Of a DNA stretch of 4,125 nt, positions 1,262 to 4,125 are shown piece by piece. Source of the DNA: a virus. Taxonomy: Duplodnaviria > Heunggongvirae > Uroviricota > Caudoviricetes. Location of the stretch: the IMG/VR virus record IMGVR_UViG_2695420487_000011. One strand, 5' to 3'. Both the position numbers and the translations under genes were made by a program. The number at the start of each line of letters is the position of its first letter. Position 1 is the stretch's first letter. The notes below the pieces were generated by a model. That model was given only the letters and a program-made list of their open reading frames with translations, was not told where the DNA came from and did not search any database.

Positions 1262-1834
1262 ATGGAAAGCACAGCCTTACAGCAGGCCTTTGACACCTGT
1301 CAGAATAACAAAGCAGCATGGCTGCAACGCAAAAATGAGCTGGCTGCGGCCGAACAGGAATATCTGCGGCTTCTGTCAGGAGAAGGCAGAAACGTCAGTC
1401 GCCTGGACGAATTACGCAATATTATCGAAGTCAGAAAATGGCAGGTGAATCAGGCCGCCGGTCGTTATATTCGTTCGCATGAAGCCGTTCAGCACATCAG
1501 CATCCGCGACCGGCTGAATGATTTTATGCAGCAGCACGGCACAGCACTGGCGGCGGCACTGGCACCGGAGCTGATGGGCTACAGTGATCTGACGGCCATT
1601 GCCCGAAACTGTGCCATACAGCGTGCCACAGATGCCCTGCGTGAAGCCCTCCTGTCCTGGCTTGCGAAGGGTGAAAAAATTAATTATTCCGCACAGGATA
1701 GCGACATTTTAACGACCATCGGATTCAGGCCTGACGCGGCTTCGGTGGATGACAGCCGTGAAAAATTCACCCCTGCGCAGAACATGATTTTTTCGCGTAA
1801 AAGTGCGCAACTGGCATCACGTCAGTCTGTGTAA
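1262..1834 (+). CDS. psu: Psu, polarity suppression protein (Rho antagonist / capsid decoration), 190 aa
   Basis: A 190-aa ORF immediately downstream of delta, matching the P4 sid-delta-psu order and the known length of Psu. A purine-rich SD (GAGAAAGAG) precedes the ATG. The ORF is followed by a hairpin and the cos site, as at the right end of the P4 genome. Confidence 0.8.
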   Translation: MESTALQQAFDTCQNNKAAWLQRKNELAAAEQEYLRLLSGEGRNVSRLDELRNIIEVRKWQVNQAAGRYIRSHEAVQHISIRDRLNDFMQQHGTALAAALAPELMGYSDLTAIARNCAIQRATDALREALLSWLAKGEKINYSAQDSDILTTIGFRPDAASVDDSREKFTPAQNMIFSRKSAQLASRQSV

Positions 1835-1867
1835 AATTCCCCGAAAATCCGCCCGTTTTTACTGAAA

Positions 1868-1898
1868 AAAGCCATGCATCGATAAGGTGCATGGCTTT
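1868..1898. terminator. Hairpin terminator-like structure downstream of psu (11-bp perfect stem, 9-nt loop)
   Basis: AAAGCCATGCA (1868-1878) pairs perfectly with TGCATGGCTTT (1888-1898). On the plus strand the stem is followed by an interrupted T-tract (TTTGCATGCGTTTCCC). On the minus strand it is followed by a clean T6 run (complement of A-run 1865-1870), so it may terminate in both directions. Confidence 0.45.
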
Positions 1899-1925
1899 GC
1901 ATGCGTTTCCCTGCCTCATTTTCTG

Positions 1926-1953
1926 CAGACCGCGCCATTCCCGGCGCGGTCTG
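1926..1953. repeat. Perfect 11-bp inverted repeat (CAGACCGCGCC / GGCGCGGTCTG) with 6-nt spacer in the cos-proximal region
   Basis: Read directly from the sequence. It lies about 45 bp upstream of the cohesive-end sequence; candidate terminase recognition or binding element, or structural element of the cos region. Confidence 0.5.
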
Positions 1954-1998
1954 AGCGTGTCAGTGCAACTGCATTAAAACCGCCCCGCAAAGCGGGCG

Positions 1999-2017
1999 GG
2001 CGAGGCGGGGAAAGCAC
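1999..2017 (+). other. cos site: 19-nt P2/P4-type cohesive-end sequence GGCGAGGCGGGGAAAGCAC
   Basis: Exact match to the 19-nt cohesive-end sequence that I recall as shared by P2, 186 and P4. It is positioned about 165 bp downstream of psu, as at the P4 right end, and is flanked by GC-rich palindromes (CCCGC-AAA-GCGGG at 1984-1996; GGTGCTCG 2033-2040 / CGAGCACC 2061-2068). Confidence 0.75.
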
Positions 2018-2071
2018 TGCGCGCCCCCGGTTGGTGCTCGTTACTAATGTTTTTTGCGCCCGAGCACCGTC

Positions 2072-2099
2072 GGGAAGGGGCTGGGGGGGATAGGGGAGG
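2072..2099 (+). repeat. G-run tract (GGG-aa-GGGG-ct-GGGGGGG-ata-GGGG-a-GG) fitting a G-quadruplex-forming pattern
   Basis: Four or more runs of at least 3 G separated by 2-3 nt, read directly. It sits just upstream of the point where composition changes from GC-rich backbone to AT-rich cargo. Confidence 0.4.
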
Positions 2100-2219
2100 T
2101 GCCTGACGTCGCGCGGTAATGTTGGTAAGTGTGCCGCTGATGGCTTCTGAGGGGAGTGGTAAATAGCCGCCTTTCGACGGTGTAGTGGGGAGAGTATTGC
2201 TTACAAACGTAATGAAATT

Positions 2220-2308
2220 GTTTGAGTAGCTAGGCTACTGCATAGGATTATTTTGTTCTGTTAATATATCCGTTAATATAGATAGATTGATCCAATTGAG
2301 TTTAAGGA
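2220..2308 (+). promoter_or_regulatory. Putative promoter/operator region of the 569-aa ORF
   Basis: AT-rich leader containing a 15-bp palindrome AGTAGC-TAG-GCTACT (2225-2239), a direct repeat GTTAATATA at 2260-2268 and 2272-2280 (12-bp periodicity), candidate -35 TTGTTC (2253-2258) with -10 TATAGA (2277-2282), and SD AAGGA at 2304-2308. Exact promoter elements cannot be fixed by eye. Confidence 0.3.
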
Positions 2309-4018
2309 ATGAGTATGTTTCAGATATCAGCTGGAGTGTTCTTTGATTTAGATAAAATAGAAAAACACGATGGCACATTTGTTTTTTATTCAAATGTTGA
2401 TGTGTCTTTCTCGGTGGAAAACACCTCCCCTCTTTTTAAAGCAAATAAAATAAGTCATGATGGTATAAACTGTTATGTGGTAAACTATACTCTCCTGACC
2501 GAAAAACCAGAACGAATTGAAGCTGGAGTCGTAGTTAGGGCTGGTGATGAGGATTATAGGCAACAATTTATTTTATTATGGGAATTCTATTTTGATTGTG
2601 TGGCTAGAGTAGAAAAAGAATCGGTTAAAAAAATATGTGCATTATCAAATTTTAATAAACATCACTCAAAAATTGCGCTTGAAGTTGCCCCATATTTAGT
2701 GGAGATTAATCGAAGAGTTTCATTTGATGATGTCTCTGGGTTTTCTGCTTTTATTAAAGATGTAGTGAATCTAAATAGATCTGCCTTTAAATCTTTAATG
2801 GCAGCGTTAAAAATAATTAGTGATTCAAAAGAATCATTGTCAACCAACTTTGACCTGACTTATTCCATGTTAGTCTATGCCTTGGAGTCTTTGTCTCAAA
2901 GAAATGATAACTATAAGTCTGATTGGGATGACTACGATCAAAAAACCAGAGGTGAATTAGAGTCTGTATTTGAGCATATGCCTGGTGAGGATGTTTGTAA
3001 AATTAAATCAATACTTATTGAAGGCAAACAATTCAGATTACAAAAAAGGTTCAAAGATTTTATACTGAAAAATCTTGAAGAAAATTATTTCAATGAAACA
3101 GAGAGATATCCAATCCGCTATAGCTTCCTTAGTAGAGCTTTAGATAATTTATACAAAATCAGGTCTTCTTTTGTCCATGAGCTTAAGCCACTTGATGCAA
3201 TGATCTCGAAAGCCTACAATCCTGTTGGTGATTGTCTGGTTCTTTTTGGCGAACCTCACTTCAGTTACTCTGGATTGCTTCGACTTCTTCGCCATGTGAT
3301 AATAAATTTTTGCCGTAAAAACTACAGTCAAAAAAGAGAGTCTGTTAATTGGGTGATGGAAACATCGGGTGTAATGGTTGCAGAGATATCTGCACAATAT
3401 TGGCTCTGGAATGCAGACGGATTTACAGCTAAAAGTATAGCGAAGTGGTTTAGTGAATACCTAAATATGTTAAATTTAGGCGAAGTCACTGATTTGCAGT
3501 CTATCATGGACAAAATTGAGATAATCTATGATCAATCCAAAAAAGAATATAAAAATGGGTTGTTGCATTTTTATTTCTTATATAACTTAATGCATAATGG
3601 AAATAAGGGTGAATGGCTTGAGTTTGCGAACAAGCGAAGTTCTATACTTGTTTGTGATATATATTGGTATTCATGCTCTCCATATTTATATAAATCATTT
3701 ACTAATGTTTCAAATGGTATTGCTGATATAAAAACATTGAGAAACTTTTTGTCTTGTTTTAACGAATATGATAAAAATAAATTTAAGCCAAATCGTTTAA
3801 ATCTCCCTGCAATGACCGAAGTAATTATGTTGGCTTGCGCAGCAAATTCATTCTTCAGAATTGGAATGTATCAAGACTATGTTTTAATGGGCAATAGAGC
3901 GATGAGAGAAATTGCTTCAGTAAAAGATGTATTTTATTATATAAAAGAACGATTAAGTAATTCACAACTTATTGAATTGGACGAGTGCTTGAGATTGTAT
4001 AGAAAAAAGGGGGGCTAA
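2309..4018 (+). CDS. Hypothetical protein, 569 aa, AT-rich foreign gene at the P4 psu/cos-proximal hotspot; candidate anti-phage defence protein with a single HEPN-like R-x4-H motif (R285...H290)
   Basis: Long uninterrupted ORF (1.7 kb) in about 30% GC DNA, where random stop codons would be frequent, so it is very likely real. SD AAGGA at 2304-2308 abuts the ATG at 2309; the in-frame ATG at 2315 has better 6-nt spacing and may be the true start (567 aa). No Walker A, PD-(D/E)xK or zinc-finger motif recognised. Motif KIRSSFVHELK (nt 3161-3178 encode R-S-S-F-V-H) fits the HEPN R-x4-H consensus. Family assignment not possible without a search. Confidence 0.85.
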   Translation: MSMFQISAGVFFDLDKIEKHDGTFVFYSNVDVSFSVENTSPLFKANKISHDGINCYVVNYTLLTEKPERIEAGVVVRAGDEDYRQQFILLWEFYFDCVARVEKESVKKICALSNFNKHHSKIALEVAPYLVEINRRVSFDDVSGFSAFIKDVVNLNRSAFKSLMAALKIISDSKESLSTNFDLTYSMLVYALESLSQRNDNYKSDWDDYDQKTRGELESVFEHMPGEDVCKIKSILIEGKQFRLQKRFKDFILKNLEENYFNETERYPIRYSFLSRALDNLYKIRSSFVHELKPLDAMISKAYNPVGDCLVLFGEPHFSYSGLLRLLRHVIINFCRKNYSQKRESVNWVMETSGVMVAEISAQYWLWNADGFTAKSIAKWFSEYLNMLNLGEVTDLQSIMDKIEIIYDQSKKEYKNGLLHFYFLYNLMHNGNKGEWLEFANKRSSILVCDIYWYSCSPYLYKSFTNVSNGIADIKTLRNFLSCFNEYDKNKFKPNRLNLPAMTEVIMLACAANSFFRIGMYQDYVLMGNRAMREIASVKDVFYYIKERLSNSQLIELDECLRLYRKKGG

Positions 4019-4125
4019 CCCATAAGCGCTAACTTAAGGGTTGTGGTATTACGCCTGATATGATTTAACGTGCCGATGAATTACTCTCACGATAACTGGT
4101 CAGCAATTCTGGCCCATATTGGTAA

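Follow-up and report, generated by a model that had tools for sequence, protein, structure and literature searches.

Organization of the locus

The window (IMG/VR virus record IMGVR_UViG_2695420487_000011; the whole stretch of DNA analysed, 4,125 nucleotides) is a decayed P4-like satellite flanked by two insertion sequences, and the present analysis concerns the interval between its cohesive-end site (cos) and its cargo gene. The first-pass annotation had described this interval as a sharp compositional boundary between satellite backbone and cargo, marked by a tract resembling a G-quadruplex (G4), and had suggested that it is a conserved flank used for cargo exchange. Two boundaries are present: a conservation break at 2024 and a compositional break at about 2194-2204. 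The interval probably consists of P4 backbone up to 2024, a decayed block of helper left-end type at 2025-2203, and an AT-rich cargo module from about 2204, the poly-G run being a slippage tract. The features that bear on this reading are the following.

120-1834, + strand: late-operon backbone of P4, with sid (5'-truncated, ending at 691), delta (688-1188) and psu (1262-1834), recognized by identity to P4 and by Pfam matches
1969-2024, no strand: cos core common to P2 and P4, 55 bp, recognized by the exact cohesive-end 19-mer and by alignment with P4 and P2-like phages
2025-2203, + strand: GC-rich, G-skewed block, apparently copied from the non-coding left end of P2-like phages (cos to gpQ terminator) and since diverged, from composition and cos-anchored alignment
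2033-2040 and 2061-2068, no strand: perfect 8-bp inverted repeat (GGTGCTCG / CGAGCACC) bracketing a T-rich tract, from a repeat search
2072-2096, + strand: G4-motif tract with a length-polymorphic poly-G run (2083-2089, G7 here), from the canonical motif and G4Hunter
2166-2181, no strand: decayed hairpin corresponding to the tQ terminator of P2, GCCGCC-TTTC-GACGGT (in P2, GCCGCC-CGCA-GGCGGC), from alignment
2180-2210, best position 2194, no strand: compositional step, where helper-like block and AT-rich cargo module meet, from change-point analysis
2204-2314, + strand: AT-rich cargo leader with a palindrome (2225-2239), tandem 12-mers (2257-2280) and a Shine-Dalgarno AAGGA (2303-2307), from homology to the Enterobacter element L047
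2315-4018, + strand: cargo gene, 567 amino acids (aa), GC 0.33, with an invariant Rx4H (HEPN-type) motif, from the open reading frame (ORF) and its homologues

The sid-delta-psu-cos context had been named correctly. Positions 120-1998 share 98.9% identity with phage P4 (X51522 9746-11624), up to the right genome end, the window proteins match Psu (E = 1.6e-88) and Ogr_Delta (E = 5.7e-22) in Pfam, and the cohesive end lies at 1999-2017. The GC content of 121-2024 is 0.539.

Conservation among P4-like satellites stops at cos

The 19-nt cohesive end of P2 and P4 (GGCGAGGCGGGGAAAGCAC) occupies 1999-2017 and is followed by TGCGCGC at 2018-2024. The cos core of the two phages is given as 55 bp in PMC9594776 and PMC3931495, both citing Ziermann & Calendar 1990. 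Among 5,426 complete E. coli genomes searched, a P4-type psu-cos region is present in roughly half of the 2,260 matching records. In an evenly spaced sample of these records the megablast match ends at window 2022-2025 in every P4-like row (27/27), so that conservation among P4-like satellites stops at 2024, 7 bp beyond the cohesive end.

The P4-like loci of IMG/VR, gathered by pattern scans (a Psu search of genome contigs gave only six loci, including the Kluyvera satellite L007 discussed below), have the same limit. All 36 of these loci and reference P4 agree through cos plus YGCGCGC and no further; past cos+7 they fall into 28 mutually unrelated flank types when 250-nt flanks are compared, or 31 with 600-nt flanks. 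Most flank types are AT-rich directly past YGCGCGC, as is reference P4, where cos plus CGCGCGC passes at once into AT-rich sequence. Over the first 170 nt the IMG/VR flanks have a median GC of 0.32 (range 0.23-0.48), with the window type alone at 0.61.

Since both the genome matches and the flanks diverge at 2022-2025, the conserved flank is the cos core, 1969-2024. Cargo exchange could make use of this conserved 55-bp core, whose end lies about 170 bp before the GC step, and the P4-like hotspot has been described as directly adjoining cos (Rousset et al. 2022, PMC9122126). The suggestion that 2018-2200 serves as a conserved exchange flank does not stand, as the sequence common to satellites with other cargos ends at 2022-2025, and 2018-2310 as a whole is present in just 19 E. 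coli genomes, with the same cargo in all. The proposed alignment against other P4-like elements did locate a conservation break, but at 2024 and not at the GC step.

Within the cos core, 1980-1999 holds a GC hairpin (CCGCCCCGCAAAGCGGGCGG), and on the - strand a T-rich run comes after it, an arrangement kept in both P2 and P4. This hairpin was flagged as terminator-like for leftward transcription and is the only terminator-like site in 1800-2450 (- strand).

Position of the compositional step

A single change point fitted by maximum likelihood places the break in GC at 2194 (2-log-likelihood, 2-lnL, support 2180-2210) and improves the log-likelihood by 90.9. On the left side of 2194 GC is 0.541, on the right side 0.334. 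In 30-nt bins it runs at 0.57-0.73 up to 2190 and at 0.20-0.40 from 2191, and in 100-nt windows it falls from 0.57 (2101-2200) to 0.30 (2201-2300). The sharp GC drop of the first-pass annotation is thus borne out as one step of about 30 bp, sharper than the 150 bp estimated, and sliding GC shows it to be stepwise and not gradual. The AT-rich repeats said to follow the G tract are also present, as tandem 12-mers (2257-2280) and a palindrome (2225-2239). The reading of the step as a boundary between backbone and cargo was only partly right: it is the left edge of the AT-rich variable cargo, but the GC-rich side is not all backbone.

A block resembling the left end of P2-like helpers

The block at 2025-2203 is rare. 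Neither reference P4 nor the sister satellites with this cargo contain it, and a search with 2018-2310 found it in 19 of the 5,426 E. coli genomes, each with the same downstream cargo. A metagenome scan added only two further copies, on contigs that also carry this cargo.

In composition the block matches the left end of P2-like phages. From 2025 to 2194 it has a GC of 0.61, a GC skew of +0.36 and a length of about 170 nt (170-179 nt by the end chosen), and 86 P2-like flanks have a GC of 0.59 (0.57-0.61), a skew of +0.37 (0.29-0.46) and a modal length of 168; arms of the P2 type are about 155-176 nt long. Searched with blastn against phage genomes, the window matches P2-like phages from the cos core to 2078-2082 at about 80% identity. 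MAFFT aligns all of 2025-2190 with the P2-type left end, as far as the terminator hairpin downstream of gpQ. These two alignments are driven by the cos core, and the flank was hence tested alone. In cos-anchored alignment to P2, positions +8 to +67 score 15 against -2.4 ± 2.9 for shuffles (0/1000), positions +128 to +187 score 8 against -3.7 ± 2.5 (0/1000), and the whole block scores 18 against -2.9 ± 4.2 (0/1000). The middle third, which includes most of the G tract, is not significant against shuffles in this alignment.

Two structural features have counterparts in P2. The T-rich tract within the 2033-2068 inverted repeat corresponds in position to that of the P2 left end, and the DNA fold of 2025-2075 has an energy of -11.2 kcal/mol (z = -3.0). 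The hairpin at 2166-2181 lies at the cos distance of the P2 tQ terminator, which is annotated at P2 160-181. Its fold is weak (-1.9 kcal/mol, z = +0.55), and the tQ-type terminator hairpin is not intact in the block. As read from the alignment, P2 has a shorter GCTGA/TCAGC repeat round its own T-rich tract.

L007, a P4-like satellite of Kluyvera with a Psu 62% identical to that of the window, is an independent precedent for a helper-type arm in a satellite. It has the full arm, which aligns with P2-like phages over 215 nt at 81% identity (E = 1e-49), and an intact hairpin of -11.5 kcal/mol (z = -4.2). The E. coli satellites L003 and L031 have intact hairpins at the same distance from cos. A separate candidate, an exact P2 right arm in P4-like satellites, was rejected, as all 120 of the 120 IMG/VR loci with the P2-type pattern have an adjacent gpQ.

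Several observations weigh against the assignment to the helper left end. Overall identity to the P2 left end is only about 61%. An nhmmer profile of the 86 distinct P2-like flanks with the cos core removed gave no match in the window; this profile was built from very similar sequences, and the cos-anchored alignment with shuffles was used instead. Unanchored Smith-Waterman alignment of the block with P2 flanks was also not significant (z = 0.6-2.6). The assignment thus rests on position-anchored similarity together with matching composition and architecture, the homology to P2 outside the cos core being weak. Two further points bear on its reading as a decayed sequence: the block is 98-100% conserved among the E. 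coli carriers, which are too closely related to inform on constraint, and longer cos flanks gave better transduction of P2 cosmids in one study (PMC9594776). On balance we conclude from the sequence comparisons that 2025-2203 is probably a diverged, partly decayed helper-type left-end arm.

The cosmid result would also fit a rather unlikely alternative, in which the block is a functional extension of cos: having copied the left-end arm of the helper, with its T-rich tract, inverted repeat and G-rich region, this satellite lineage would gain better or redirected recognition by terminase or host factors of one particular P2-like helper. The proximal 60 nt do keep significant similarity to the helper, with the T-rich tract and its flanking inverted repeat, and several independent lineages (L003, L007, L013/L056 and L031) keep part or all of the arm. 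Against such a function, about 22 of the 28 flank types of E. coli, and reference P4 itself, have no trace of the arm, although P4 is packaged and the others are presumed to be; sister elements with the same cargo and integrase also lack it, and the copy in the window has a decayed distal hairpin and a diverged middle third.

A product encoded by the block is extremely improbable. The candidates would be a 68-aa ORF (1887-2093) or a small RNA. The ORF is a RefSeq entry, the 'hypothetical protein' WP_071587287, and figures as one gene of a two-gene 'system' in a published table of the P4 hotspot (Rousset Table S1A, PMC9122126). It crosses the cos cleavage site, consists for half its length of non-coding sequence conserved in P4, and contains the C and G runs, whose length variation shifts the frame. 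Rfam gave no match in the whole window at E <= 1. WP_071587287 is very likely a spurious gene call.

The poly-G tract

The G-run tract noticed in the transition zone is present at 2072-2096 (GGGAAGGGGCTGGGGGGGATAGGGG) and forms a canonical G4 motif by prediction (four runs of at least three G, loops of 1-7 nt); neither strand of the window has another. Over its 25 nt G4Hunter gives a score of 2.72, reached by 1/1000 dinucleotide shuffles of 2018-2194 and by 0/1000 of the whole window. The tract does not belong to a conserved flank, since it sits in the lineage-specific, helper-like block.

The run at 2083-2089 is G6, G7, G8 or G10 among the E. coli carriers, and the adjoining 300 bp or so are nearly invariant. 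The G4 motif persists across these G6-G10 variants. The C run at 2024-2028 is likewise either C5 or C3. Because G8 is found repeatedly in several independent assemblies of ATCC 8739, the variation in run length is real at least in part.

Similar runs occur in related sequences. The flanks of L013 and L056 have G9 and G11, followed by ATAGTGGG, at an equal distance from cos, and that of L013 (G9) has no four-run G4 motif. None of the 86 P2-like flanks has a canonical G4 motif, and G6 and G9 runs are found in these flanks at three other positions. The simplest reading of these sequences is that poly-G arises by slippage in a strongly G-skewed sequence class, and that the predicted G4 motif would be a by-product.

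It is very unlikely that the poly-G or G4 tract acts as a switch, through phase variation of a defence gene, or as a fragile site that promotes cargo exchange. Such a role would draw on the very high predicted G4 propensity of the sense strand, on the G6-G10 polymorphism between strains with its recurrent G8, and on the G runs at cargo left junctions in Pectobacterium, where G8 lies directly past cos+7, and in Klebsiella. From the tract it is about 225 bp downstream to the cargo start codon and about 110 bp to the conserved leader, with no promoter-like hexamers on the + strand in 1800-2450, tract included, and the only ORF across the tract also spans the cos site. The Enterobacter cargo has no G run at all. 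Satellite breakpoints cluster at 2022-2025 and not at the tract, the G6 and G9 runs elsewhere in P2 flanks have no adjacent hotspot on that side, and some homopolymer differences could be assembly errors. For G runs near cargo left junctions elsewhere, the probability that they have a role at these junctions is small.

The Klebsiella run (GGCTGGGGGGATA, L049 3861-3874) is in a non-P4 context, at a GC-to-AT step about 130 bp upstream of a cargo homologue. It nearly matches window 2079-2092, possibly by chance.

The cargo module is separable from the block

The cargo leader extends over 2204-2314 and is homologous to the cargo leader of an Enterobacter remnant (L047), with homology from about 2204. 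The tandem 12-mer at 2257-2280 (TCTGTTAATATA/TCCGTTAATATA; form TC(T/C)GTTAATATA) is single-copy in Enterobacter. The palindrome AGTAGC-TAG-GCTACT (6-3-6; DNA fold -3.8 kcal/mol) is conserved there with one arm changed. From their sequence, the palindrome and the 12-mers may be an operator or overlapping -10 elements; no near-consensus sigma-70 site for the cargo was found on the + strand in 1800-2450.

In L047 (cargo 88% identical in aa) and in a Pectobacterium P4-like satellite (L053, 69%) the cargo leader is joined straight to cos+7, and in the three-way alignment window 2025-2203 is one discrete indel. A related block in L013 and L056, with similar proximal sequence, precedes an unrelated 435-aa cargo; its anchored scores are 5 and 1 against -15 ± 5 (0/500 shuffles). 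Since the cargo occurs without the block in L047 and L053, and a related block with another cargo in L013 and L056, the two can be separated, and the GC step is the junction at which they meet.

These data also bear on the view that block and HEPN-like gene form a single travelling module, with the block serving, for example, as a regulatory region of the gene. The same cargo does follow the block in the 19 E. coli genomes, in IMG/VR locus L018 and in the two metagenome contigs. Those copies, though, are near-identical descendants of one element; the more distant cargo copies (Enterobacter, Pectobacterium, Klebsiella) lack the block, a related block precedes an unrelated cargo, and the composition of the block is of the helper-phage type and not of the cargo type. 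Together these make the view highly improbable.

The AT-rich module is horizontally exchanged. As the first-pass annotation proposed, it is variable cargo and not conserved P4 backbone, being present in 16-19 of the 5,426 E. coli genomes, against the P4-type psu-cos region of roughly half of the matching records. Between E. coli and Pectobacterium (L053 4001-6897), identity is 69% for the cargo and 77% for the integrase (Int), but 30% for Sid, 46% for Delta and 51% for Alpha. The cargo gene and the ssrA-type integrase have an identical 4-bp stop-codon overlap in both. Because cargo and integrase are far more alike than Sid, Delta and Alpha, they appear to have moved together, which suggests exchange as one unit between divergent backbones.

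The cargo protein most likely starts at ATG 2315, 7 nt past AAGGA (2303-2307), and its database homologues are also 567 aa long. About 70 homologues are found in Enterobacterales, Vibrionaceae, Aeromonas and others. R283 and H288 of the Rx4H motif are kept without exception in 26 homologues, the most distant at 18% identity. PADLOC gives a weak match to Cas13-ApeA (E = 7e-6), and one homologue is labelled 'Apea-like HEPN' in UniRef. Searches of Pfam (HEPN_Apea included), NCBIfam and PDB sequences gave no match to the protein, and its structure model (predicted local distance difference test, pLDDT, 85.7) has only generic helical matches among solved structures. The protein is a candidate ApeA-like defence nuclease. 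It is already catalogued as a 'hypothetical' cargo of the P4 hotspot (WP_000486481/482; Table S1A of Rousset et al. 2022, PMC9122126). The Rx4H motif, the weak PADLOC match and this catalogue entry lend only indirect support to a putative role in anti-phage defence.

The Klebsiella homologue in L049 (71% identical) adjoins a gene for an SOS-response-associated peptidase (SRAP) and a umuD-like fragment, with a resolvase gene in the region. In E. coli SCPM-O-B-7615 (L001 11196-13678), an otherwise identical element has its cargo gene interrupted by IS1A.

Origin of the interval

The interval appears to be composed of three pieces. The first is P4 backbone through 2024, closing with the 55-bp cos core common to the helper P2. 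The second, 2025-2203, would be a diverged copy of the helper sequence of about 170 bp between cos and the gpQ terminator. Its helper left-end origin would account for its high GC and strong G skew, and a slippage-prone poly-G would have arisen within this G-rich sequence and satisfied the G4 motif by chance. The third, from about 2204, is the leader and the 567-aa HEPN-like gene, followed by the integrase in intact copies, a piece exchanged horizontally between divergent P4-like backbones.

The block appears to be a relic, because its hairpin has decayed, its middle third has diverged beyond recognition and its poly-G and poly-C lengths vary. It may have been kept from a longer ancestral cos region or acquired by recombination with a helper at cos. 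It is probably dispensable for packaging, and neither the block nor the G tract is likely to mediate cargo exchange.

A bolder version seems distinctly unlikely. Here a minority of P4-like satellites would carry the whole helper left arm, gained by helper-satellite exchange across cos, and the poly-G or G4 tract would tune packaging, helper choice or read-through.

Window ends and the missing integrase

Both ends of the window are insertion sequences (IS), and these two ends make the satellite a non-mobile remnant.

1-120, no strand: end of an IS3-family insertion sequence, which truncates sid, with thousands of megablast matches annotated as IS3-family transposase over 1-120/126
4019-4125, no strand: end of an IS4-family element of the IS421/IS186 type, with matches annotated as IS4-like IS421 transposase

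The integrase that bounds the hotspot is absent from the window itself, where the IS421-type end begins at 4019. It is present in the intact relatives L001 and L178-L182 as a 398-aa protein at the IS421 position, overlapping the cargo stop codon and beside ssrA and smpB. The IS421/IS186-type end is inserted exactly where the cargo stop meets the integrase stop, directly after a G6 run (GGGGGGCTAACC joined to CATAAGCG; 4009-4125). IS186 is reported to favour G/C-rich targets, which would fit insertion after the G6 run.

Comparison with known systems

The left end of P2-like phages (cosL to tQ, upstream of gpQ; NC_001895 1-186) is the closest counterpart of the block. The two agree in position, in length (about 170 nt), in GC (about 0.6) and in skew (about +0.37). 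They also share a T-rich tract at +25-35, an A-run with a GCCGCC hairpin at +165-185 and significant cos-anchored similarity. The window differs in its low identity (about 61%), in an unrelated middle third and in a mutated 3' arm of the hairpin. It also has a G4-type tract, found in 0/86 P2 flanks, and is followed by satellite cargo and not by gpQ.

In phage lambda, cosB is an arm beside the nicking site to which terminase and integration host factor (IHF) bind. By analogy, the arm in the window is non-coding, lies beside the nick site at the left end and has an AT/T-rich element that could bend DNA. The literature available defines no binding sites in the P2 left arm. Since most P4-like satellites lack the arm, it is not an obligatory equivalent of cosB.

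Homopolymeric contingency tracts resemble the poly-G run in that its length, G6-G10, differs between near-identical strains. The run in the window lies outside any meaningful coding region, with no promoter-like hexamers around it, and its length changes have no apparent ON/OFF consequence.

ApeA-type HEPN proteins (Gao et al. 2020; PADLOC) resemble the cargo as single-gene systems in a defence hotspot with an invariant Rx4H in an all-helical region. The window protein differs in having no HEPN_Apea match and no fold match beyond generic helical repeats.

The psu-int defence hotspot of P4-like satellites (Rousset et al. 2022, Cell Host Microbe, PMC9122126; de Sousa & Rocha 2022, PMC8628076; NAR 2026, PMC13586616) has the same order of psu, cos, variable cargo and int as the window, and adjoins cos. 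The window cargo is likewise AT-rich and differs between elements with shared flanks. The difference is the helper-like block of about 180 bp between cos and cargo in the window, which sets the GC step about 170 bp from the conservation break. Such a block is not mentioned in the published descriptions consulted (e.g. PMC9122126). Homology between P2 and P4 has been described as confined to the 55-bp cos, or as very little (e.g. PMC9594776, PMC9122126). A defence hotspot beside cos with AT-rich foreign cargo was thus already known; the helper-type arm interposed here adds modestly to it. To this picture the analysis adds that the conservation break and the compositional break are distinct sites, and that some satellites, the window and the clear Kluyvera case, hold a helper-type arm despite the 55-bp limit given in the literature. 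Cargo and integrase, for their part, appear to move jointly between divergent backbones. The arm gives a modest point of entry to the remodelling of the hotspot, through recombination at cos and erosion of the arm, and to the question whether cos flanks affect packaging.

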